From a virus (taxonomy: Duplodnaviria > Heunggongvirae > Uroviricota > Caudoviricetes), in the IMG/VR virus record IMGVR_UViG_2648501165_000018, positions 1 to 9,137 of that record: a stretch of 9,137 bases of DNA; one strand, written 5' to 3'. Positions 1 through 9,137 of this stretch are shown piece by piece. The position numbers were made by a program, and so were the translations under genes. How positions within the stretch are numbered: the first letter of the stretch is position 1; the number at the start of each line of letters is the position of its first letter. The notes beneath the pieces were generated by a model. It was given only the letters and a program-made list of their open reading frames with translations. It did no database searches and had not been told where the DNA came from.

Positions 1-528
1 ATGCTAAATGTAAGGTTTGATTCAGAAAAGGCTTTAGAGGCCATTCTGTACGTCGCCTCTAAAGCACCGATCCCAGATATCTATCATGTCGGAAAAATTC
101 TTTATTATGCTGACAGGTTTCACCTTGAAAGTTTTGGACGCCTCATAACGGGCGATCACTATAACGCTATGAAGGATGGGCCTGTAGCAAGCAACACATA
201 CGATATTATAAAAATTGCTCGTGGAAATGGACGTTACATTCCTAATGGTTGTGATGTCGATTCTGTGCGAAAAGCATTTTCTGTATCAGGTATGACGATT
301 GTGCCGAGCCGTGAAGCTGATGAAGACTTTTTTAGTGACTCAGATTTAGAGTGTATTGATAAGTCTATCGCGATGCTTGGAAACATGTCCTTTGAAGCTA
401 TCAGAACCATGAGCCATGACGCGGCATGGGAACAGGCAGATCACAATGGTGAGATGTCTTTGGAATCGATAGTTGCACAGCTAAAAAATAGCAAATTAAT
501 ACTGGATTATCTGAAGAACGGATATTGA
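1..528 (+). CDS. Panacea-domain (DUF4065, SocA/PanA-like) protein, putative antitoxin or immunity component
   Basis: 175-aa ORF starting at the first base of the window, so the true start may lie upstream. The N-terminal half (…KALEAILYVASKAP…YHVGKILYYADRFHLESFGRLITGDHYNAMKDGPVASNTYDIIK) matches my recollection of the DUF4065/Panacea signature (KLxKLLYyAd…HL…g.pl…Y.A…GPV…Y). Stop TGA at 526-528 lies 5 nt before the first ATG of the next ORF. Family assignment is from memory, not from an HMM search. Confidence 0.6.
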   Translation: MLNVRFDSEKALEAILYVASKAPIPDIYHVGKILYYADRFHLESFGRLITGDHYNAMKDGPVASNTYDIIKIARGNGRYIPNGCDVDSVRKAFSVSGMTIVPSREADEDFFSDSDLECIDKSIAMLGNMSFEAIRTMSHDAAWEQADHNGEMSLESIVAQLKNSKLILDYLKNGY

Positions 529-533
529 TACTT

Positions 534-995
534 ATGCTGGGTGATTGTTTCCCTCCTGATTTTAAGGCTAATTTTAGTCGTGAAAGAGGTATATCACCCG
601 GTGATGTATTGTATCTTCATTGTGATTTTACGACCCCACCTAAAGTAAAATATATGGTGGTTGTTTGCTGTGAACCTCTTTTAGTTCTTCTAATAAATTC
701 AGATATAAATGAATTTATTAAGAGAAACAATGATCTTATGGCTTGTCAGGTCGAAATTAATAGAGAGGACCATGATTTTCTTAAATGGGACTCATTTGTT
801 AATTGCATTGAGGCTCATGCTGCTTTCGATCTTGAAATTATTAAAGAGAAAATAGCCATCCAATATGGTGACGTGCTAAAAGGTCGCATTACAGATCATT
901 GTATGAGACAAGTTCGATGTGCAGTTGAGATATCTAAAACTATGGTTAAACGGCATAAAAAACTGATACTCGCTGCTCTTCAACATTATGAATAA
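534..995 (+). CDS. hypothetical protein, candidate toxin/effector partner of the Panacea-domain gene
   Basis: ORF track gives 525..995 with a TTG start that overlaps the upstream stop; the first ATG is at 534 (MLGDCFPP…, 153 aa). No strong Shine-Dalgarno, consistent with translational coupling. Visibly AT-richer than the phage genes to its right. No catalytic motif recognised. Followed immediately by a hairpin terminator. Confidence 0.5.
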   Translation: MLGDCFPPDFKANFSRERGISPGDVLYLHCDFTTPPKVKYMVVVCCEPLLVLLINSDINEFIKRNNDLMACQVEINREDHDFLKWDSFVNCIEAHAAFDLEIIKEKIAIQYGDVLKGRITDHCMRQVRCAVEISKTMVKRHKKLILAALQHYE

Positions 996-1015
996 ACCCA
1001 TCTTTGGATGGGTTT
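994..1015. terminator. bidirectional intrinsic terminator between convergent operons
   Basis: Perfect 9-bp inverted repeat AAACCCATC (994-1002) / GATGGGTTT (1007-1015) with a TTTG loop. It is followed by TTTATTCAT on the plus strand and by an equivalent U-rich run on the minus strand. It sits between the stop of the + ORF (993-995) and the stop of the minus-strand PrtN-like ORF (1029-1031). Confidence 0.5.
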
Positions 1016-1028
1016 ATTCATATTCTAT

Positions 1029-1301
1029 TTAAATGAGCCTTTGTTTATGGGTTCTGACCCTTTCCCACTCAGCACGCCCTTCTTCTCGCCTTTTGTCTAT
1101 GTATTCCGCAAGATCCTGAATATTGATGCAACGTTTTGCTTTTTGTGATGTGCCGATGCGATATGTTGGAACGGGCAACTTACAAGCGTTTGCTTTTGCT
1201 TCTGCCGTGGCTGGACTCATGCCAAAGTACTTTTGGCTAACTGCTGAGAGTTCAATGTTAGGGGTATTGAATTCAGCCATCAGTAAAAACAAGGTGTTCA
1301 T
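1029..1301 (-). CDS. PrtN-like (pyocin-activator family) small DNA-binding protein
   Basis: The ORF track's 99-aa version begins at a GTG (1328). I prefer the ATG at 1301 (MNTLFLLMAEFNTPNIELSAVSQKYFGMSPATAEAKANACKLPVPTYRIG…), which is preceded by GGAGA 5 nt upstream; an ATG at 1313 is an alternative. Sequence resembles the PyocinActivator/PrtN family as I recall it. Last gene of the minus-strand operon. Confidence 0.5.
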   Translation of the reverse strand: MNTLFLLMAEFNTPNIELSAVSQKYFGMSPATAEAKANACKLPVPTYRIGTSQKAKRCINIQDLAEYIDKRREEGRAEWERVRTHKQRLI

Positions 1302-1337
1302 AATTTTCTCCATCAAAACCGGCTGCACCCGGGAAAA

Positions 1338-1910
1338 TCATAATTCTGTGCTGGTGGCAGGAATTAGTTTCTGCCAGATAGCGGAAACATATTTTGCCTG
1401 ATGACGGGCATCAGCCAGGGCGTTGTGCCGTTCGCCATCGAAAGGCATGTCCATTTTTGGGTCGAATCCGATGGAACGCCCAAGCGTAACGATCGTGCGT
1501 ACATCGTGGTCATTCCAGTACGCCCACGGGCAGATTTGTCCTGCTCGCTCGTAAGCTCCACGTAAAATTACGTTGTCGAAGGTGGCCCCGTTACCCCAGA
1601 CTTTTAAATATTTTGTATTGTCTGCATGCTGATTAATGAAATGGCTCAGTTCAGAGAGTGCATCGCTGATCGACAAAGTATCATCAATACAGATTGCAGC
1701 TCGTGCTTCAGAGCTCTGTTTCAACCACCACAGGATGGTATCGCCGTCAGGTGTAGCTCCTTGCCCCATAGCACTTTCCAGGCTAACAACCGTATAGAAT
1801 TCTTGTCCGATGTCTCCGGTTTCTGGAGTGAAGAACACCGCGCCAATGGAAACGATCGGTGCATCCTTATTTTTCCCCATCGTCTCAAGGTCGATCATTA
1901 AGTTATTCAT
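1338..1910 (-). CDS. DEDDh-type 3'-5' exonuclease (DnaQ-like fold)
   Basis: 190 aa. N-terminal MIDLETMG carries the Exo I D-x-E motif and HNALADARH near the C-terminus carries the Exo III H-x4-D motif. SD GGAGGTGA lies 5 nt upstream of the ATG at 1910. The start overlaps the upstream stop by 1 nt (TAATG). Confidence 0.7.
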   Translation of the reverse strand: MNNLMIDLETMGKNKDAPIVSIGAVFFTPETGDIGQEFYTVVSLESAMGQGATPDGDTILWWLKQSSEARAAICIDDTLSISDALSELSHFINQHADNTKYLKVWGNGATFDNVILRGAYERAGQICPWAYWNDHDVRTIVTLGRSIGFDPKMDMPFDGERHNALADARHQAKYVSAIWQKLIPATSTEL

Positions 1911-2221
1911 TACTTCACCTCCTGCGTTTCTTTGCTGCTGTGAATTCGCCAGTTACCGACGCCTTCCCATTCAAACTGGCGGTTACTAATTCGCGTCCAG
2001 CCCCTGCCGAAAAGCAAATCCAGATACCAGTATTTTAAAGTTCTGATAATTGCTCTTACAGTTGGTTTGCATCCAGAAGTCTTTGATGCGCAAATAAAGC
2101 ACCGAGTTATGCTCATGGCTTCTACAAAAGGCCAGATAAACCAAACCCAGATGCAAAGAGCCACGAACAACATGAGCGCGATGTTAGCCACTAAGCCAGA
2201 CCAGTACAGATAATTGCTCAT
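1910..2221 (-). CDS. hypothetical small membrane protein with Cys cluster
   Basis: 103 aa. A hydrophobic N-terminal segment (LVANIALMLFVALCIWVWFIWPFV) predicts one transmembrane helix, followed by CFICASKTSGCKP. The start at 2221 overlaps the upstream stop (ATGA-type junction). Confidence 0.5.
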   Translation of the reverse strand: MSNYLYWSGLVANIALMLFVALCIWVWFIWPFVEAMSITRCFICASKTSGCKPTVRAIIRTLKYWYLDLLFGRGWTRISNRQFEWEGVGNWRIHSSKETQEVK

Positions 2222-2601
2222 TGGTTGCCTCCACCTTGGCTCTGAAGCATGGCAGCGCGGCAGGCGTTCCAGCCATCAACATACCCAGCCATGATATATC
2301 GATTAAAACCCACCTCTTTCTGTGCGCGTGCCAGATTCATTTCCTCCGGCACGTGTACTGGCTGAGCTATATATAGCGGCTGAACATACCAACCCTTTGA
2401 TAACCAACTGTCAGCAACGTTTTTACTCCGTGTTATTGCCGGAATACCTAAGCCATTGTCTGAATGCAGCCATGCCACCGGTTCTGCTTCCAGCGATGCC
2501 AGCGTAATCCGTGCAAGTTCCATTTGTTCACCACGGGTAAGCCCGTTTTCAAGCGGATTTTTAATGAATAATTCGATACGTTCTTTGGTAATAGAATTCA
2601 T
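2218..2601 (-). CDS. hypothetical phage protein
   Basis: 127 aa. The ATG at 2601 is preceded by AAGGTG 7 nt upstream and lies 1 nt after the upstream stop (TAG C ATG). No domain recognised. Confidence 0.5.
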   Translation of the reverse strand: MNSITKERIELFIKNPLENGLTRGEQMELARITLASLEAEPVAWLHSDNGLGIPAITRSKNVADSWLSKGWYVQPLYIAQPVHVPEEMNLARAQKEVGFNRYIMAGYVDGWNACRAAMLQSQGGGNQ

Positions 2602-2602
2602 G

Positions 2603-2794
2603 CTATTTCACCTTAATCTCAACATTTCGCAGCTTTATGTCTACTGGTAGGTCTGACTTTCCTGTTAACGCTAATGCGAGATTTTCAGGAGTAATGAGAG
2701 CAGTTATTGTTTTCCCCATCGCCAGACGAATAATCATTCGTATCTCGCGATCGTCACATGCTCCCGGTCGAACAATTGAGATTTGTCCGTTCAT
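2603..2794 (-). CDS. hypothetical small phage protein (63 aa)
   Basis: ORF track gives 2603..2824 with a TTG start. The ATG at 2794 (MNGQISIVRPG…) has a strong SD AAGGAGAG 6 nt upstream and lies 1 nt after the upstream TGA, so I take 2794 as the start. Confidence 0.45.
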   Translation of the reverse strand: MNGQISIVRPGACDDREIRMIIRLAMGKTITALITPENLALALTGKSDLPVDIKLRNVEIKVK

Positions 2795-2795
2795 C

Positions 2796-3383
2796 TCACT
2801 CTCCTTTGATGCGAATGCCAGCAAGCCAGTTTCTTATGCCGATATATTCAGCGTTCCTGAAACCGCTTTTTACATATATAAATGGCAAGCGAAGATTGTG
2901 ACCGTTGGCTGCCAGGTAGTCTTTACAACCCTGTTCGGTGAAACAGCAGGTAACGAATTCATCAATATCTTTCACAGCAACGCGCCGCCATTTTTCTGGT
3001 GGTTCCCGAAAGTTTTCATGAAGTAGTTCGAGACGACGACTTTGGAGTTTATTGGCTTCATTGCCATCTTCATCAACCCAGACAATCCGGTCATAGTCAT
3101 AATCAGCATCAACAACAATTTCGCGCTTTTGATACACACAAAACATAGGGTCTGACGTTATTCGATTATCCTGTGTTCGAATATTTTCACCGATGATGCC
3201 AAACGAATCTGGCGTAGGTTTTGTCTGTAACTCTTCGATACGTTCAGCCAGCGCCGCGCACTTGGCCTCAGCTTCAGCAAATTTACGCACCAGGTACTCA
3301 GCGTTTGTTTCGTTCACTTTCAGATCTCGCGGTACACATTTCCCGCGAAGAAACCCTTCCATTTCGAAAACATTCATGCGCAT
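2796..3383 (-). CDS. hypothetical phage protein with N-terminal coiled-coil-like segment
   Basis: 195 aa from the ATG at 3383. An alternative ATG at 3377 forms an ATGA overlap with the stop of the upstream HD-domain gene. The N-terminus contains a helical, charged stretch (AEAEAKCAALAERIEELQ) and the C-terminus is acidic (DADYDYDRIVWVDEDGNE). No family recognised. Confidence 0.55.
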   Translation of the reverse strand: MRMNVFEMEGFLRGKCVPRDLKVNETNAEYLVRKFAEAEAKCAALAERIEELQTKPTPDSFGIIGENIRTQDNRITSDPMFCVYQKREIVVDADYDYDRIVWVDEDGNEANKLQSRRLELLHENFREPPEKWRRVAVKDIDEFVTCCFTEQGCKDYLAANGHNLRLPFIYVKSGFRNAEYIGIRNWLAGIRIKGE

Positions 3384-3910
3384 TTGCGTAACCCCGATAA
3401 CTCGTTAAAACGTTCCATAAACATCCCGTAGGCATGGCCTGGTGACAGTGGAATAACTTTGAACATCTCTGTCGCCGGGATACCTTCCAGTACAGGCCAG
3501 AAAGAGCCATCATCAAGCCCGAGATCGCGGCGTTCGGTTGCCAGCATAATGAGATCGGCATATTTCACAGGCGTGCTCATAACCGGGGGTAACCCGTATT
3601 TCTCACGGATTACGGCGTCTATTTTTTCTTCCATCCGTTTATAGTCAGGAAGAAGGCGTTTCAGTGGCGCGGGGATGTCCTGGCAATACGCTTCTGTTGC
3701 ATCATGCATTAACGCTTCAAAAGCAAATTCCTGTGGCACCAGCTGGCTGCAAAGCACCGCATGTTGGGCGACGCTGTAGAAGTGTGAAAGATGTCCTGCA
3801 AAGCGACAGATATTTGAAAGGGAAACCGCGATATCGTTAATCACGATGTCGTCTTTATTTATCCTGTCATAATAAAAATGCTTCCCGGAAAAAGTTTTAA
3901 TAAATGACAT
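3374..3910 (-). CDS. yfdR: HD-domain phosphohydrolase, YfdR-like (5'-deoxynucleotidase family)
   Basis: ORF track starts at a GTG (3940). The ATG at 3910 (MSFIKTFSG…) has SD GGAGAA 4-5 nt upstream and gives 178 aa. HD-domain signature residues are present (…ICRFAGH…, …LMHDATEAY…). Length and synteny with a 274-aa and a 120-aa gene match the yfdP-yfdQ-yfdR block of the E. coli CPS-53 prophage as I recall it; the symbol is assigned from recalled length, synteny and motif, not from alignment. Confidence 0.65.
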   Translation of the reverse strand: MSFIKTFSGKHFYYDRINKDDIVINDIAVSLSNICRFAGHLSHFYSVAQHAVLCSQLVPQEFAFEALMHDATEAYCQDIPAPLKRLLPDYKRMEEKIDAVIREKYGLPPVMSTPVKYADLIMLATERRDLGLDDGSFWPVLEGIPATEMFKVIPLSPGHAYGMFMERFNELSGLRKCA

Positions 3911-4003
3911 TTTGTTCTCCACGTAAATGTGTTGCACCACGCTGAATTCTGGTAAAAGGAAGCCCTCACCATCCGGTGATTATTGAGTTAATTACGTTTC
4001 CAT

Positions 4004-4025
4004 AAATGCCCCCGCAGGGGCATTT
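4004..4025 (-). other. intercistronic RNA hairpin between the yfdQ-like and yfdR-like genes
   Basis: AAATGCCCC (4004-4012) / GGGGCATTT (4017-4025) forms a 9-bp stem with a 4-nt loop, 13 nt downstream of the yfdQ-like stop. The downstream sequence on the minus strand is only moderately U-rich, so it is more likely a stability/processing hairpin or weak attenuator than a strong terminator. It lies in an unusually long (127-bp) spacer in an otherwise overlapping operon. Confidence 0.3.
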
Positions 4026-4037
4026 GCAGTAATGAAA

Positions 4038-4862
4038 TCAGGCGGTGAAAGTACCAATAAAGGTTTCTACTTTGCTGTCTTTGAATTTCTCAACAAGCAG
4101 ATCACGAAATTCGTTAGCCATTTCCTCCTGCACTGCTTCCAGCTGAATAATGCGCAGAACCAGTACAGGACGATCGCCAGTGATAATGCTGAGGCGTAAT
4201 TTAAACGGACGTTCTTTCAGGCCTTCAAACGGAACGCATTTGAATTCAAATGCCACTGGCATAATGTCTTTGGTTTTCGCTTCGACAGACTCCATCAGGG
4301 AGCGTTTGCCGCTGAAGTCATTGTCTTCAAAATCAGCGGTCTGGTTTGCTTCAATCGTGATTTTACGGACTGCCGCAGCTGCTTTTGTTGCCTGAATAGC
4401 GTCACCATTAGCATCAAAGCCCACAAGGTAGTCCGCCCAGTCTTCAATCCATTCTGCCAGTGACTTCTGGGAGTTACGCTCGCCATTAACAGACAACAGA
4501 GCAGAGAACGGTGCTGTCTTTTTCAGTTTGAGAGTGGCGGTGTTATCTGCGTGGCCTGGTTCATCAATAGTACCAAGATTAAGCACACTGACAGCACGCA
4601 TATTATCAGCATCGATAAAGCAGCGGGTGCCTTCATCTGCAAGATCTTTAGAATAACGGGTAAAGTCATCGATGCTGGCAGTGGAAAGCGCACCACGGAA
4701 ACGGAAGCGATTTAAATTAAATTTTTCCAGATCATGAATGCGGAAATTCTCAGGCAATGCCACAGCATCAGCACCAATCTTACTGATAATTTCATTAACA
4801 CCCTGAGCAGAAATAAGGGCATGGATTTGATTAATTGCAGTTGCGTCTAAGTTCTGAGACAT
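4038..4862 (-). CDS. yfdQ: YfdQ-like protein (DUF2303 family), function unknown
   Basis: 274 aa. The ATG at 4862 has SD GAGGA 6 nt upstream. Length and position between the YfdP-like and YfdR-like genes match the CPS-53 yfdP-yfdQ-yfdR arrangement. Assignment is by recollection, not alignment. Confidence 0.6.
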
Positions 4863-4927
4863 AATAAGTCCTCACTATATAAAGATATTCAGTGATGAGA
4901 TAAAAAATCAGTTTATTAAGAACGATA

Positions 4928-5290
4928 TTAACGACCTGCTGCGCGGAGTTTTCCGTCAGGTTCACCGGCAAGAGTCAGTAATTGTCCCTGGTCTTCCTGC
5001 AGAATAGTCAGACGACCACCGCGATTGACATACATCGGCGTTTCGGTGGTGTCTTCTTCGGAAATTTTCCCGCGGTTAGTCGGGCGAACATATGAGAGTT
5101 TGTGTTTGATTTTCACACGGTTCTCATCAAATGGTTCGATTTCCAGGTTGAGTGAGACCTTACCTTTGGTTTTCGTGTTCATCACACCGGAAGCGACTTC
5201 ACTGAGAACTGCGCCGATTTTGGTTTCAAATACGCCGCCGTCCAGCTCCCCGATAAATGCCTGCACATCAGTACTGCGTTCGCTAGCCAT
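4928..5290 (-). CDS. YfdP-like hypothetical phage protein (120 aa), first gene of the early-left operon
   Basis: ORF track extends to a TTG at 5476 and runs through a terminator hairpin. The ATG at 5290 (MASERSTDVQAFIGELDGG…) has SD GAGGAG 6-8 nt upstream and gives 120 aa, the length I recall for YfdP. Confidence 0.55.
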   Translation of the reverse strand: MASERSTDVQAFIGELDGGVFETKIGAVLSEVASGVMNTKTKGKVSLNLEIEPFDENRVKIKHKLSYVRPTNRGKISEEDTTETPMYVNRGGRLTILQEDQGQLLTLAGEPDGKLRAAGR

Positions 5291-5338
5291 TTTGCTGCTC
5301 CTCATCATATCGACCCTGCAAGGTCGGTTGGTTTCTCC

Positions 5339-5427
5339 ACAAAACAGAGAAGAACACCTGCGGTGGCAGCCGCCCGGATGGATTGGGTTATGAGCCCGTC
5401 GTCCGGTGATGCTCTTCTCTGTTTTGT
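5339..5427. repeat. 89-bp element bounded by perfect 15-bp inverted repeats (ACAAAACAGAGAAGA … TCTTCTCTGTTTTGT)
   Basis: Positions 5339-5353 are the exact reverse complement of 5413-5427. The 59-bp interior is GC-rich and holds further short palindromes (CCGGA…TCCGG, GCGG…CCGC). It lies in the untranslated leader just upstream of the YfdP-like RBS and directly downstream (on the minus strand) of the terminator U-tract. Confidence 0.6.
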
Positions 5428-5434
5428 AAAAAGA

Positions 5435-5473
5435 GCGGTACCAGCCGGAAGCAAGTGTACAAACTGGTACCGC
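5435..5473 (-). terminator. intrinsic terminator in the early-left leader
   Basis: 10-bp GC-rich stem GCGGTACCAG (5435-5444) / CTGGTACCGC (5464-5473) with a 19-nt loop. On the minus strand the 3' arm is followed directly by TCTTTTTAC (reverse complement of 5426-5434). Confidence 0.5.
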
Positions 5474-5904
5474 CAAAGCAGTGGCTGTTGTGGTGATCGG
5501 TGATGATCTCCGGCTTGCGGTTATTTCAGACTCTCACGGGCATTTAATTGCCCCGCCGAACAGCTCTTTTCCGCAATAGCTGCAATGTCTTTCGCGCATC
5601 AGCCTGCGCATTCACCACAACGCTGAGAGCACTTAGCCAGTTACGGCACCACACTTTGTCGCGGTTCCATAAATGCCCTCATAGTTGCACCCTGGTCTCT
5701 TCCCAGGCGTCAAACCGAATCGCCACGCTGGTTAGGCGTCTTATCAGCATCATCATTGACTTGCACATTCCGGCTACCTGGTTTGTTTGCCCGAGCAAGG
5801 AGTGGATTGTCCCCTTTAACGTCCCCAGACCGCTAACGACGCATGTGCCATACGCCGTGTTACAACCAAATTTTGTTAGTACCTTGTTTGTTGGTCTGGA
5901 AAGA

Positions 5905-5957
5905 AAGATAAAATGAAGTTGCGCATTATGCAAGTATTTTTGTTGCGAGATATGCAA
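5905..5957 (-). promoter_or_regulatory. candidate OL operators and PL-like leftward promoter
   Basis: Two copies of a 15-bp motif TTGCG-N3-TATGCAA (5919-5933 TTGCGCATTATGCAA; 5943-5957 TTGCGAGATATGCAA), centres 24 bp apart. The same motif with one mismatch occurs in the cI/cro intergenic region. On the minus strand a -35 TTGCAT (5928-5933) and a -10 TATCTT (5905-5910) are 17 bp apart and overlap the first site. Promoter assignment is by eye only. Confidence 0.35.
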
Positions 5958-5974
5958 TTTGATGGGTAATGAAA

Positions 5975-5992
5975 AGCCACCTTCGGGTGGCT
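5975..5992 (-). terminator. intrinsic terminator downstream of the cI-like repressor gene
   Basis: AGCCACC (5975-5981) / TTCG loop / GGTGGCT (5986-5992), 20 nt after the cI stop. On the minus strand it is followed by TTTCATTAC. Confidence 0.5.
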
Positions 5993-6012
5993 AATTGATG
6001 AGGAGGTAAGGG

Positions 6013-6705
6013 TTAATTGTGTCGCTTAAGGGTTTGTGACTGGCTGATTAAGACCTTTCCAAAGACCATAAACCGGTGTTCATTTTCGCTGGTAATTCCC
6101 CATTCACGATAAATCTGGTTATCAGAAATCACCAGTAGTTTGTCAGGTATCATTTGCAGTCGTTTGACATAAATTTTATCATCAAAACCAAATACATAGA
6201 TACCATCTCCATCAAACTGATTGATACTGACATCAACGAAGATGAGATCTCCTGGCTCAATGGTTGGACACATACTGTCCCCACGAACGTTGATAACTTT
6301 AATGTGATTTGCTGGCCGTCCGCCAAACATCGATACAGCATTATCAGTTCTGTATTCAATGGCATGAATCACATCAATGACATCTCCGCCCTGGATAAGG
6401 CCATTTCCCGCACTGGCACTGATATCCAGCATTTCAATACGGAATACATCCTTCACCTGCGCAATATCCTCACTAATACTGTTTTTACATACAGTATTAC
6501 TTTTGAAGTCTGAGGTAAAGAGATCAGCAATATCAACACCTAAGCTCCTGGCAATATTACTCAGGGCTTGTTCAGTGAATTGTTTCTGCTTACCTGTTTC
6601 GAGGCGCGAGATATTCGCCGCATCCACTCCTATTGCTTCAGCGAGATCGGCGATTTTCATGTTCTTCGCCTGGCGAAGTTGTCTGACTCGATTTCCTATG
6701 TTCAT
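6013..6705 (-). CDS. CI-like prophage repressor (HTH-XRE N-terminal domain + S24 LexA-like autopeptidase domain)
   Basis: 230 aa. N-terminal HTH (VRQLRQAKNMKIADLAEAIGVDAANISRLETGK). C-terminal S24 signature with the catalytic Ser in RGDSMCPTIEPGDLIFVD and the Lys in IYVKRL, plus an Ala-Gly candidate cleavage site (SASAGNG). Divergent from the Cro-like gene. The -10-like TGTAAT ends 6 nt before the ATG, suggesting a leaderless or short-leader mRNA as with lambda PRM. Confidence 0.8.
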   Translation of the reverse strand: MNIGNRVRQLRQAKNMKIADLAEAIGVDAANISRLETGKQKQFTEQALSNIARSLGVDIADLFTSDFKSNTVCKNSISEDIAQVKDVFRIEMLDISASAGNGLIQGGDVIDVIHAIEYRTDNAVSMFGGRPANHIKVINVRGDSMCPTIEPGDLIFVDVSINQFDGDGIYVFGFDDKIYVKRLQMIPDKLLVISDNQIYREWGITSENEHRFMVFGKVLISQSQTLKRHN

Positions 6706-6802
6706 GCGTTTATTACATTTCTTTATTGCGCGTTAAGCAAATCAACTTGCGCAAAATATTTGCGTGAAATAATATGCTCATCACGCAATATGTGGAGGTT
6801 AT
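6706..6802. promoter_or_regulatory. divergent immunity control region (OR-like operators, PRM-like and PR-like promoters)
   Basis: Operator-like sites: TTGCGCGTTAAGCAA (6726-6740), the palindromic TTGCGCAA (6747-6754), and the inverted repeat TTGCGTGA (6760-6767) / TCACGCAA (6781-6788). Rightward candidate promoter: -35 TTGCGC (6747-6752), 17-bp spacer, -10 TAATAT (6770-6775). Leftward candidate promoter: -35 TTGCTT (6735-6740 on minus), 17-bp spacer, -10 TGTAAT (6712-6717 on minus). SD GGAGG (6794-6798) precedes the cro-like ATG at 6803. Confidence 0.45.
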
Positions 6803-7063
6803 ATGCAATCACCATTACGGAATGTGCGTAAGGCGCACGGATTTACTTTGCAGCATGTTGCTGCGGGCGTTCAGGTCAATCCAGCGACGCTGAGTCGTAT
6901 TGAAAGACTGGAACAAATTCCATCTATCGAGCTTGCAGAACGTCTGGCCAATTTTTTTAAGGGAGAAATCAGCGAAATGCAGATTCTCTATCCTGCACGC
7001 TTTCAATCTAGTCAAAACCGGAATGAGTTAAAACCACAGGAACAGGAGGTAAGCCGTGGGTAA
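6803..7063 (+). CDS. Cro-like HTH-XRE transcriptional regulator
   Basis: 86 aa. HTH (LRNVRKAHGFTLQHVAAGVQVNPATLSRIERLE). First gene rightward of the repressor, preceded by GGAGG. Confidence 0.7.
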   Translation: MQSPLRNVRKAHGFTLQHVAAGVQVNPATLSRIERLEQIPSIELAERLANFFKGEISEMQILYPARFQSSQNRNELKPQEQEVSRG

Positions 7064-7607
7064 GCATCACTGGAAAGTGGAAAAACAGCCTGAGTGGTAC
7101 GTGAAAGCTGTCAGAAAAACTATCGCGGCGTTGCCGGGGGGTTACGCTGAAGCTGCTGAGTGGCTGGATGTAACAGAGAACGCTTTATTCAACCGCCTTC
7201 GTGCCGATGGCGATCAGTTTTTTCCGTTGGGATGGGCAATGGTTTTACAGCGTGCGGCTGGTACTCACCACATTGCGGATGCTGTCGCACAGTCTGCTGG
7301 TGGGGTGTTTGTATCACTTCCAGAAATTGAGGAAGTAGAGAACGCCGATATAAACCAGCGCCTGCTGGAAGTCATCGAACAGATCGGGAGTTACTCAAAG
7401 CAGATTCGTTCGGCAATCGAAGATGGGGTAGTGGAGCCACACGAGCAGACAGCAATTAATGATGAGTTGTATCTGTCAATTTCGAAGCTCCAGGAGCATG
7501 CAGCACTGGTCTACAAAATCTTCTGCGCTCCAGAAAAGAGTAACGCCCGCGAGTGTGCAGCTCCGGGCGTCGTGGCGTTTTGTGTCTGTGGAGAAACTAA
7601 CGCATGA
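7056..7607 (+). CDS. CII-like phage regulatory protein (186-CII/CP76-type, positional CII equivalent)
   Basis: 183 aa. GTG start at 7056 with a strong SD AGGAGGT (7044-7050) 5 nt upstream; overlaps the cro-like stop by 8 nt. Putative HTH GGYAEAAEWLDVTENALFNRLRADGDQ, followed by a …FFPLGWAMVLQRAAGTHHIADAVAQ… segment reminiscent of the phage 186 CII family as I recall it. Same position as cII in lambdoid layouts. Confidence 0.55.
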   Translation: MGKHHWKVEKQPEWYVKAVRKTIAALPGGYAEAAEWLDVTENALFNRLRADGDQFFPLGWAMVLQRAAGTHHIADAVAQSAGGVFVSLPEIEEVENADINQRLLEVIEQIGSYSKQIRSAIEDGVVEPHEQTAINDELYLSISKLQEHAALVYKIFCAPEKSNARECAAPGVVAFCVCGETNA

Positions 7608-8764
7608 ACAGTTTAACGGCAAATAACCGTTTGTCGCAACAGCTGGTGGTCAGTGTCGCTGCACACCTGTTGTTACGGCATGAATGCAGATTACCAAATC
7701 ACCTGGCTGTAAGTAACCACAGAGAACTTTACCTGACTGTGGGGGGCGAGTTGTGCAGGAACTTAACCGCTGGTTTCGTGACGGAAGAGGACTTTATGTT
7801 CATGTTATTCGTTGGGAGCCAGAAACACAGCGCGTTATCTATCTTCGCAAAGACTACCCGCATGAGTGCTTTAGTCCTTTGTGGAAATTCAGGCGTGATT
7901 TTGTTGAGTGTGAAGGACCACCAGCATATTGATTCTGCAATTCCGGGACGTTACACTGTTCAGGCACCTTATAAAGCGGGTGCCGGGATTGGCGTCCTGA
8001 AATTGTCAACGGCGATGTATGACGCGCCAGCGTCTTTTTTATCGTCCGCATTTGCTCACATCCAGATTATGGTGGGCTGGGCGGGGGCACCGAAAGGTGC
8101 GCCGGTCTCCGTTGACGCCGGTTACGCCAACCCCGTCCAGTTCACCACCAGTGAAATTGGCGTTTCCGGTGGTGGAAGTTTTTCACTGTCAACGGAGGCT
8201 GCCATCATGGCTACGATCCAAGCCCTCACTCAACCTGAAATCACCATTGACAACGGCCAGGCCGTTACCACTTCTTTGGCTGTTGCCAACTTCTTCTCCA
8301 AGCGTCACGACGATGTGCTGAAAAAGATCCGCACTCTGGATTGTTCCCCTGAGTTTTGTGCCCGCAATTTTGCGGAGACATCGATTTCGGTAAATCAACC
8401 GAACGGTGGTACACGCAAGCTCCCTTGCTATCAAATCACACGAGACGGTTTTGCGTTTCTTGCTATGGGTTTCACGGGTAAACGTGCTGCCCGGTTCAAA
8501 GAGGCATACATCAATGCCTTTAACCAGATGGAAAAACTGCTTTCAAAGCCATCCACGCTGAGCGATGCCGCAGATAACGCCAGCGTGCTTTACTCCCACC
8601 TGTCGGTAATCCACAAGGTCTGGCTGCAGCAGCTTTATCCTATGTTGGCAAAAGCTGAATCTCCGCTGGCTGTTAGCTTATATGATTATATTAATGATGC
8701 TTCGGCGCTGGCCTGCCTCATAAATTTGTCGCTGAACCCTTCAGAGGTAAGGGGGCGCAAATGA
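7604..8764 (+). CDS. Rha-domain phage regulatory protein (antirepressor-like); N-terminal extent uncertain
   Basis: The C-terminal ~185 aa (from the ATG at 8207, MATIQALTQPEITIDNGQAVTTSLAVANFFSKRHDDVLKKIRTL…ITRDGFAFLAMGFTGKRAARFKEAYINAFNQME) matches the Rha family as I recall it, and that ATG has a strong SD GGAGG 8 nt upstream. The frame is nevertheless open back to the ATG at 7604, which forms an ATGA junction with the CII-like gene; codon usage and the R/P/S-rich shadow frame argue that at least 8019-8206 is coding in this frame. The reported span is the full open frame. 8207..8764 is the conservative core. Confidence 0.5.
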   Translation: MNSLTANNRLSQQLVVSVAAHLLLRHECRLPNHLAVSNHRELYLTVGGELCRNLTAGFVTEEDFMFMLFVGSQKHSALSIFAKTTRMSALVLCGNSGVILLSVKDHQHIDSAIPGRYTVQAPYKAGAGIGVLKLSTAMYDAPASFLSSAFAHIQIMVGWAGAPKGAPVSVDAGYANPVQFTTSEIGVSGGGSFSLSTEAAIMATIQALTQPEITIDNGQAVTTSLAVANFFSKRHDDVLKKIRTLDCSPEFCARNFAETSISVNQPNGGTRKLPCYQITRDGFAFLAMGFTGKRAARFKEAYINAFNQMEKLLSKPSTLSDAADNASVLYSHLSVIHKVWLQQLYPMLAKAESPLAVSLYDYINDASALACLINLSLNPSEVRGRK

Positions 8765-8985
8765 TCCGGAATATTTTCAAACGGTTTACCAATCAGACTT
8801 TCCGTTGTCCTCGTCCGGGTCAGTGGTACACCACACCTGCAGGGCATGTTCTACGTGTTAGCCTGGTTGACCGTGAATGTCAGAAGGTGATTTGTGAACC
8901 GCTTGGCCGTAATTACCGCGTCAGTATGCCGCTTATAGCCTTTCGCTCCGGAAAAAACATGAAGCATCTCGGAGGTGCAGCATGA
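8761..8985 (+). CDS. hypothetical small phage protein (74 aa)
   Basis: ATGA overlap with the Rha ORF stop at 8761-8764 and a second ATGA overlap with the next gene's start at 8982-8985. Basic, Cys-containing (RCPRPGQW…RECQKVICEP). No domain recognised. Confidence 0.45.
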   Translation: MIRNIFKRFTNQTFRCPRPGQWYTTPAGHVLRVSLVDRECQKVICEPLGRNYRVSMPLIAFRSGKNMKHLGGAA

Positions 8986-9137
8986 GTATGGAGCTGATGG
9001 TTAAAGCGATGAAAATTCGAGTGGGTAATCCATTGCGAAAACTGGTTCTGATCAAGCTGGCTGATAATGCCAGCGATCAGGGTGAGTGCTGGCCCAGCTA
9101 CCAGCATATTGAACCGCCCCGGGTTTCCTGGAGAGTA
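8982..9137 (+). CDS. phage replication-initiation-type protein, N-terminal HTH fragment (truncated by window end)
   Basis: ATG at 8982 with SD GGAGG (8971-8975) 6 nt upstream. MSMELMVKAMKIRVGNPLRKLVLIKLADNASDQGECWPSYQHI… resembles the N-terminal winged-HTH of phage replication proteins (the …KLVLLALADHANDDGECFPS… pattern). Runs off the end of the window. Confidence 0.5.
   Translation, partial: MSMELMVKAMKIRVGNPLRKLVLIKLADNASDQGECWPSYQHIEPPRVSWRV

Follow-up and report, generated by a model that had tools for sequence, protein, structure and literature searches.

A prophage-borne panA-panT operon, probably a type II toxin-antitoxin system with a highly diverged MazF/PemK-fold toxin

The panA-panT operon and its products

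The window analyzed here is a stretch of 9,137 nucleotides (nt) from a tailed phage of the class Caudoviricetes (IMG/VR record IMGVR_UViG_2648501165_000018, positions 1 to 9,137), and it opens with two tightly spaced plus-strand genes that together resemble a PanAT toxin-antitoxin operon. The first, panA (open reading frame 1 [ORF1], nt 1 to 528), begins with its ATG at the first nucleotide of the window and encodes a 175-amino-acid (aa) putative antitoxin composed of a standalone Panacea (DUF4065) domain. The second, panT (ORF2, nt 534 to 995, with the ATG at 534 and the stop codon at 993 to 995), encodes a 153-aa predicted toxin of PanT cluster T5.

The junction between the two genes (nt 525 to 536, plus strand), as read from the sequence, consists of the panA stop codon TGA at 526 to 528, a 5-nt gap, and the panT start codon at 534 to 536; an alternative TTG start at 525 would instead overlap the panA stop codon and give a 4-nt overlap between the genes. 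Upstream of the ATG at 534 only a weak GGA at about -12 is present, and because there is no strong Shine-Dalgarno sequence, panT is likely to be translationally coupled to panA. The tight juxtaposition and the lack of an independent ribosome-binding site had both been described in an initial annotation of this DNA made from the sequence alone, and both descriptions hold. One criterion for a PanAT pair is that both genes lie on the same strand no more than 100 nt apart (Kurata et al. 2022), a spacing within which the two genes fall whether the 5-nt gap or the 4-nt overlap is used. Gaps across homologous panA-panT loci range from -1 to 12 nt.

A hairpin with a perfect 16-bp stem (nt 987 to 1022; TATGAATAAACCCATC-TTTG-GATGGGTTTATTCATA) overlaps the panT stop codon and has the appearance of an intrinsic terminator. 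Its RNA is predicted to fold with -26.2 kcal/mol (z score of -6.6), and none of 200 shuffled sequences was as stable. The initial annotation called it a bidirectional terminator, and this is borne out in part: the hairpin is strong and a terminator scan scored it as an intrinsic terminator on the plus strand, but the scan made no call on the minus strand, where the tail is poorer in T. Action in both directions is plausible. Beyond the hairpin lies xis (nt 1029 to 1301, minus strand), a PrtN-family excisionase-type gene (PF11112, E value of 2.9e-23), followed by a gene for a 3'-5' exonuclease (exo), so that the pair is convergent to the early-left operon of the phage, as the same annotation had stated. 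The hairpin is predicted to insulate panAT from this xis-exo operon.

The start of panA deserves comment, since the RefSeq start lies 54 nt upstream of the window and would give a protein of 193 aa. This extension is not conserved, and equivalents of MLNVRFDSEKA form the N terminus in Proteus, Serratia, Rahnella, and most database relatives (175 to 180 aa). Because of this conservation across genera, we take nt 1 of the window as the true panA start. The promoter and ribosome-binding site of panA therefore fall outside the window. In Escherichia coli strain UTAK-1, a sigma-70 promoter-like site, TTGACC-18-TAAGAT, is located about 67 nt upstream of panA (locus L001, positions 11905 to 11934); it is regarded only as a candidate because sigma-70-like sites are no more numerous in that region than expected by chance.

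The assignment of ORF1 as a Panacea protein, proposed earlier from the letters alone, was confirmed by a Pfam search. PanA matches PF13274 (SocA_Panacea) over residues 32 to 143 with an E value of 2.4e-20 and 74 bits, well above the 25.7-bit cutoff, and it also matches phrog_1281 (E value of 8e-21). The NCBIfam SocA equivalog NF047745 scores only 18 bits with PanA against a cutoff of 190 bits. An AlphaFold model of PanA, built with 37 homologues, has a predicted local distance difference test (pLDDT) value of 94.3 and a predicted template modeling score of 0.90, and it places all 175 residues in one compact helical domain with small beta hairpins. Neither a separate N- or C-terminal domain nor a helix-turn-helix or disordered tail appears in the model, and for this reason PanA is predicted to be a standalone Panacea antitoxin, as Ernits et al. 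(2023) use the term; they describe such antitoxins as neutralizing toxins directly via the globular domain.

PanT is far harder to place by sequence. It matches no Pfam, NCBIfam, or PADLOC family, and the two nearest candidates, PADLOC PDC-M02B (E value of 0.016, 12 bits) and phrog_29007 (E value of 0.0087), were dismissed as subthreshold. The protein nevertheless belongs to a large family. Its 41 close homologues are 148 to 157 aa long and come almost entirely from Enterobacterales, plus Idiomarina. When 1.84 billion representative proteins were searched with a profile of the family, 1,246 representative clusters were recovered at an E value of ≤1e-3 (621 at ≤1e-10), and at 50% identity these clusters span Proteobacteria, Bacteroidetes, and other phyla with conserved length. 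Among 98 diverse members, K39 and S87 are invariant, and G23, F32, K37, N55, S56, Q72, F82, L83, and C91 are nearly so.

Structure prediction is more informative. The AlphaFold model of PanT (pLDDT of 90.9) consists of a beta-barrel core flanked by one helix at the N terminus and two additional helices at the C terminus; the core, at about residues 20 to 118, shows the SH3-like barrel fold of MazF and Kid. Foldseek searches with this model returned MazF-mt3 and MazF-mt1 as the top matches in the PDB and a "PemK-like protein" and an "Endoribonuclease" as the top matches among viral models. Since these searches agree, PanT is placed within the MazF/PemK/CcdB fold class as a strongly diverged member. 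PanT is probably an endoribonuclease. The statement in the initial annotation that ORF2 carries no assignable motif thus stands at the level of sequence families, but not at the level of fold.

Conservation of the pairing, decay of panT, and the cargo slot

The pairing of the two genes is strongly conserved. A panA homologue (phmmer E values of 4e-119 to 5.5e-34) lies directly upstream of the panT homologue in all 37 loci from species-representative genomes and IMG/VR that have enough upstream DNA, usually with a gap of 3 to 12 nt. These loci represent about 11 lineages, including Photorhabdus, Proteus, Serratia, Atlantibacter, and Idiomarina. The same arrangement extends to the distant relatives: for all five PanT relatives taken from the far end of the matches listed, with about 30% identity, the gene immediately follows one that matches PF13274, the gap being -1 to 5 nt. 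The five distant pairs occur in mutually unrelated contexts, for example, next to an integrase gene or between PAP2 and glycosyltransferase genes, and the flanking genes of the other paired loci differ as well, with multicopper-oxidase-like and hpt-like ORFs (read from ORF translations) in Photorhabdus and phage genes elsewhere. The proposal that ORF2 homologues recur beside Panacea genes is thus upheld by all 37 related loci, by the five distant relatives, and by one isolated phage, discussed below.

Two PanA relatives at first appear to be orphans. Directly after one such gene, encoding a 205-aa Panacea protein, lies an uncalled T5-like ORF of 124 codons (locus L063, positions 2627 to 3001, plus strand; tblastn E value of 0.001), and in a second case (locus L064) the corresponding gap contains a weak T5-like match. 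The number of solo PanA proteins is probably inflated, because gene callers miss some divergent panT genes.

Decay of the operon has been uneven. In Photorhabdus, panA is intact in locus L010, where the toxin gene is truncated at its N terminus (positions 4001 to 4390), and in locus L013, where the toxin gene is frameshifted (3992 to 4461); in locus L015 (3562 to 4162), both panA and panT are truncated. Disrupted panT alleles (P0196 and P0201) also occur in E. coli: a C-terminal frameshift variant of 112 aa is present on 82 contigs, and an N-terminally truncated variant of 113 aa that starts at Met41 is annotated in strain ACN002. Decay of panT before panA in Photorhabdus and disruption of panT in E. 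coli are as expected if panT encodes the harmful partner. The decaying copies, from several Photorhabdus species, are chromosomal and flanked by ORFs similar to a multicopper oxidase and to hpt; some of these loci also carry, 1 to 1.5 kb downstream, a canonical pair of the PemK/MazF type whose antitoxin is AbrB-like.

The pair also has a defined place in its prophage. The 1,100-bp panAT region is present in 54 of 5,426 complete E. coli genomes, in each case chromosomally, and the protein cluster of PanT includes Salmonella. The copy in E. coli UTAK-1 is 100% identical and belongs to a lambdoid prophage of roughly 50 kb, where it begins about 200 nt in from attL. This prophage is inserted in the 5' end of dusA, with a 35-codon dusA fragment at its left and its integrase gene at the opposite end, divergent from the restored dusA, and panAT is the first item inside attL.

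The space between attL and xis is variable. The xis-exo module occurs in 741 of the 5,426 E. coli genomes, compared with 54 for panAT, and homology breaks just past the xis stop codon. In O157:H7 strain EC4115 (locus L059, positions 2519 to 3422) and O145:H28 strain RM13514 (locus L060, positions 2519 to 3422), the slot equivalent to nt 1 to 1028 of the window encodes hypothetical proteins of 177 and 57 aa with no Pfam match. In O2:H6 strain PG20180057 (locus L061, positions 2221 to 3422), it contains another Panacea gene, whose product is 29% identical to PanA, a different partner of 128 aa, and, again, the 57-aa ORF. The G+C content is about 41% in panA and about 35% in panT, compared with 43 to 50% in the neighboring phage genes. 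The low G+C content and the variable attL-xis slot indicate that panAT is exchangeable accessory cargo with its own transcription signals, in agreement with the earlier placement of the pair at a cargo-bearing prophage arm.

PanT cluster T5 and competing explanations

PanAT systems were defined by Kurata et al. (2022, PNAS 119:e2102212119), who grouped the predicted toxins into 88 clusters. One of their T5 toxins, WP_054475897.1 of Photorhabdus heterorhabditis (Dataset S1), is encoded in an antitoxin-first pair with a 3-nt gap. It falls in the 90% cluster of P0033, a homologue that is 53% identical to ORF2 (E value of 9e-51), and two further strains, P. namnaonensis PB45.5 and P. khanii NC19, are found both among the loci analyzed here and in the published T5 list. 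From these sequence relationships, we assign ORF2 to PanT cluster T5. The two sets share the toxin family, the antitoxin-first order, a standalone PanA (labeled "noNTD" by Kurata et al.), and gaps of a few nucleotides. The E. coli/Salmonella prophage member described here is, however, absent from their table, in which the E. coli entries belong to T1 and T3. An E. coli MOD1 "mRNase" listed as not toxic in their Table S1 was considered as the same system and rejected, since it belongs to cluster T1 and has different accessions. The HHpred analysis of a T5 representative in that study gave EndoA/MazF/PemK at about 99.5%.

A homologous pair was found even earlier in an isolated temperate phage. 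In Serratia phage vB_SspS_OS31, a DUF4065 gene (p23) and a MazF-like gene (p24; HHpred, 98.9%) were proposed as a new toxin-antitoxin system (Int J Mol Sci 2020, 21:6709; PMC7556043). The p24 protein aligns with ORF2 over 97% of its length at 46% identity, and p23 and p24 are translationally coupled, with the stop codon and ATG overlapping by 1 nt. They differ from panAT in position, lying between the Q antiterminator gene and a methyltransferase/lysis module, whereas panAT is at the att end. The suggestion that the Panacea partner could be an undescribed toxin is consequently not supported: the protein has a MazF/PemK fold, its family was catalogued as PanT T5 in 2022, and a homologous pair had been proposed as a toxin-antitoxin system in 2020. 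The rest of that interpretation, a Panacea gene in a tight operon with a recurring partner in a cargo slot, is retained. A full-text literature search for newer work on Panacea found nothing beyond the PNAS papers of 2022 and 2023.

The reading we favor, with a probability of roughly 70%, is that the prophage carries a PanAT operon working as a type II toxin-antitoxin system, in which panA encodes a standalone Panacea antitoxin and panT a highly diverged MazF/PemK-fold toxin of cluster T5. In this scheme, panA and panT would share a dedicated promoter close to attL on its prophage side and be translated in a coupled manner, and the hairpin would isolate them from the leftward early operon, so that they could be expressed in the lysogen as accessory cargo. 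Free PanT would cleave RNA at specific sequences, as MazF does, and so halt translation and growth, and the globular Panacea domain of PanA would bind PanT directly and hold it inactive. The toxin would be set free if PanA were lost or inactivated, with phage infection and prophage loss as candidate triggers; plausible roles are phage defense through abortive infection and, equally, prophage addiction.

The conserved pairing, the T5 assignment, the decay pattern, and the cargo features described above favor this reading, as do findings on other PanAT pairs. The T6 pair of Pseudomonas moraviensis, whose toxin copurifies with PanA, and the T25 pair of Bifidobacterium ruminantium are both validated and inhibit translation (Kurata et al. 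2022); like panAT, they combine a Panacea antitoxin with a MazF/PemK-like toxin, and they differ in belonging to other toxin clusters, the PemK model recognizing T25 but not T5. The toxicity of one T5 member and the direct neutralization ascribed to standalone Panacea domains are also in its favor. Compared with MazEF, Kid-Kis, and PemIK, PanA has a globular Panacea domain in place of an AbrB/MazE-type DNA-binding antitoxin with a disordered tail, and PanT has no significant sequence similarity to their toxins and is extended by helices at its N terminus (one) and its C terminus (two).

Several results weigh against this reading and are considered together. The defense models of PADLOC-DB v2 gave no match for ORF1 and no significant match for ORF2. 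Of the 98 diverse T5 members, none matched Pfam PemK_toxin (PF02452) even at an E value of ≤1, and no other Pfam family was matched consistently; a profile search of PDB sequences with the ORF2 family returned only chance matches, to an augmin subunit and to bungarotoxin. Alignment by hhalign of the 98-member family with six MazF-type sequences, three of them from Photorhabdus loci, was not significant (E values of 0.076 to 0.1), and it was used for the residue register alone, which at an E value of 0.1 is of low confidence. In this register, T5 G23, K39, N55, and D86-S87 correspond to Bacillus subtilis MazF G6, R25, T48, and D72-S73, respectively. R25 (in the beta1-beta2 loop) and T48 (at the end of beta3) are the catalytic Arg and Thr of MazF, and S73, aligned with T5 S87, contacts RNA. 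The register is itself inferred, and it agrees with the order of secondary-structure elements. Because it places the invariant Lys39 and the Asn55-Ser56 pair at the catalytic Arg and Thr positions, the chemistry or target of T5 may differ from that of MazF.

Experimental precedent also counts on this side. The tested T5 member, from Chryseobacterium bovis, encodes a toxin that is toxic in E. coli, as is its PanA, and rescue was not seen (Kurata et al. 2022); T5 therefore has the status of a predicted cluster, with no pair validated as a working toxin-antitoxin system. Eight PanTs were not toxic in E. coli in the same study, among them the MazF-like T8 member of Flavobacterium xanthum and two T1 "mRNase" members from a prophage or phage.

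These same facts feed the alternative that survives best, which we nonetheless consider unlikely: that the conserved pair does not arrest growth in E. coli and that PanT is a catalytically altered or nontoxic RNA- or protein-binding factor, for example, a regulator or a phage-cued effector, with PanA as its partner or sensor. Such a role would fit the nontoxic PanTs, including the prophage-borne ones, the toxicity of the tested T5 PanA itself, the apparent replacement of the MazF catalytic residues, the N- and C-terminal helices that MazF lacks, and the sensory role for Panacea favored by Ernits et al. (2023). It is at odds with the toxicity of one T5 member, with the invariant polar residues at positions expected for a MazF-type active site, with the earlier decay of the toxin gene in Photorhabdus, and with an operon layout (tight, coupled, and with the antitoxin gene first) that type II systems typically show.

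Two further alternatives accept that PanT is toxic and change the mechanism, and we regard both as improbable. PanT could be a gyrase poison like CcdB, which belongs to the same fold superfamily, instead of an RNase. Or the operon could be a type VI system like SocAB of Caulobacter, with PanA serving as a ClpXP adaptor that destroys the toxin instead of binding and blocking it. The latter idea draws on the shared domain, since Panacea is the SocA domain and RefSeq/NCBI names close homologues "SocA family protein". However, PanA scores far below the SocA equivalog cutoff, PanT is not SocB-like, and Kurata et al. (2022) concluded that PanAT pairs are type II and act via direct complexes; the mechanism expected for panAT is accordingly direct binding and not delivery to ClpXP. 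Accidental adjacency, or an ORF2 that is not a real gene, has nothing in its favor except the lack of a database family match, and with 41 close homologues, 1,246 representative clusters of conserved length, a confident fold prediction, and a pairing that is invariant across unrelated contexts, chance adjacency is excluded.

A more novel reading can be put forward only tentatively. T5, so far found only beside standalone Panacea partners, might represent a branch of the MazF fold with a function of its own, having Lys and Asn-Ser at the catalytic positions and an added helical module, and in E. coli and Salmonella prophages it might be expressed in the lysogen and act there in abortive infection or superinfection exclusion, with Panacea as the sensor of a phage cue. 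If T5 is indeed such a defense module, the attL-xis slot at dusA would be a hotspot at which different PanAT cassettes are swapped. The T5 family is large and has no Pfam model, and the E. coli prophage member offers T5 in a native and genetically tractable host. It is thus a convenient test case for asking whether T5 toxins act as RNases, by what means a globular Panacea domain inactivates a toxin of the MazF fold, and whether prophage-borne PanAT pairs give lysogens protection from other phages. Current concepts remain unchanged, and a predicted node of the PanAT network is filled in.

Other features of the prophage

In the UTAK-1 prophage, just after the end of the window (nt 9137, corresponding to position 21137 of locus L001), an IS3-family transposase gene (L001, positions 21152 to 22365) interrupts a helix-turn-helix gene of the replication region, and several early-left genes, including a DUF551 gene and one for a hypothetical protein, are annotated as partial. 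This copy of the prophage may be defective. The same prophage has a tRNA-Ile/Arg/Arg cluster downstream of Q (locus L058, positions 4129 to 4380) and effector-like cargo near its tail-fiber end, consisting of a frameshifted EspS and a DUF1076 protein (L058, positions 33439 to 35190).

Within the window, two structured RNAs match Rfam at the gathering level on the plus strand: isrK at nt 7964 to 8040 (62 bits) and C4 antisense RNA at nt 8065 to 8152 (81 bits). Both are located inside an ORF of 386 aa (nt 7604 to 8764) that RefSeq names a "Rha family phage regulatory protein". A Pfam Phage_ASH match at residues 117 to 212 covers the RNA stretch, and the Rha domain starts at residue 222. The ORF may thus be overextended across a P1/P7-type C4/isrK immunity RNA locus that lies upstream of a shorter Rha/antirepressor gene.

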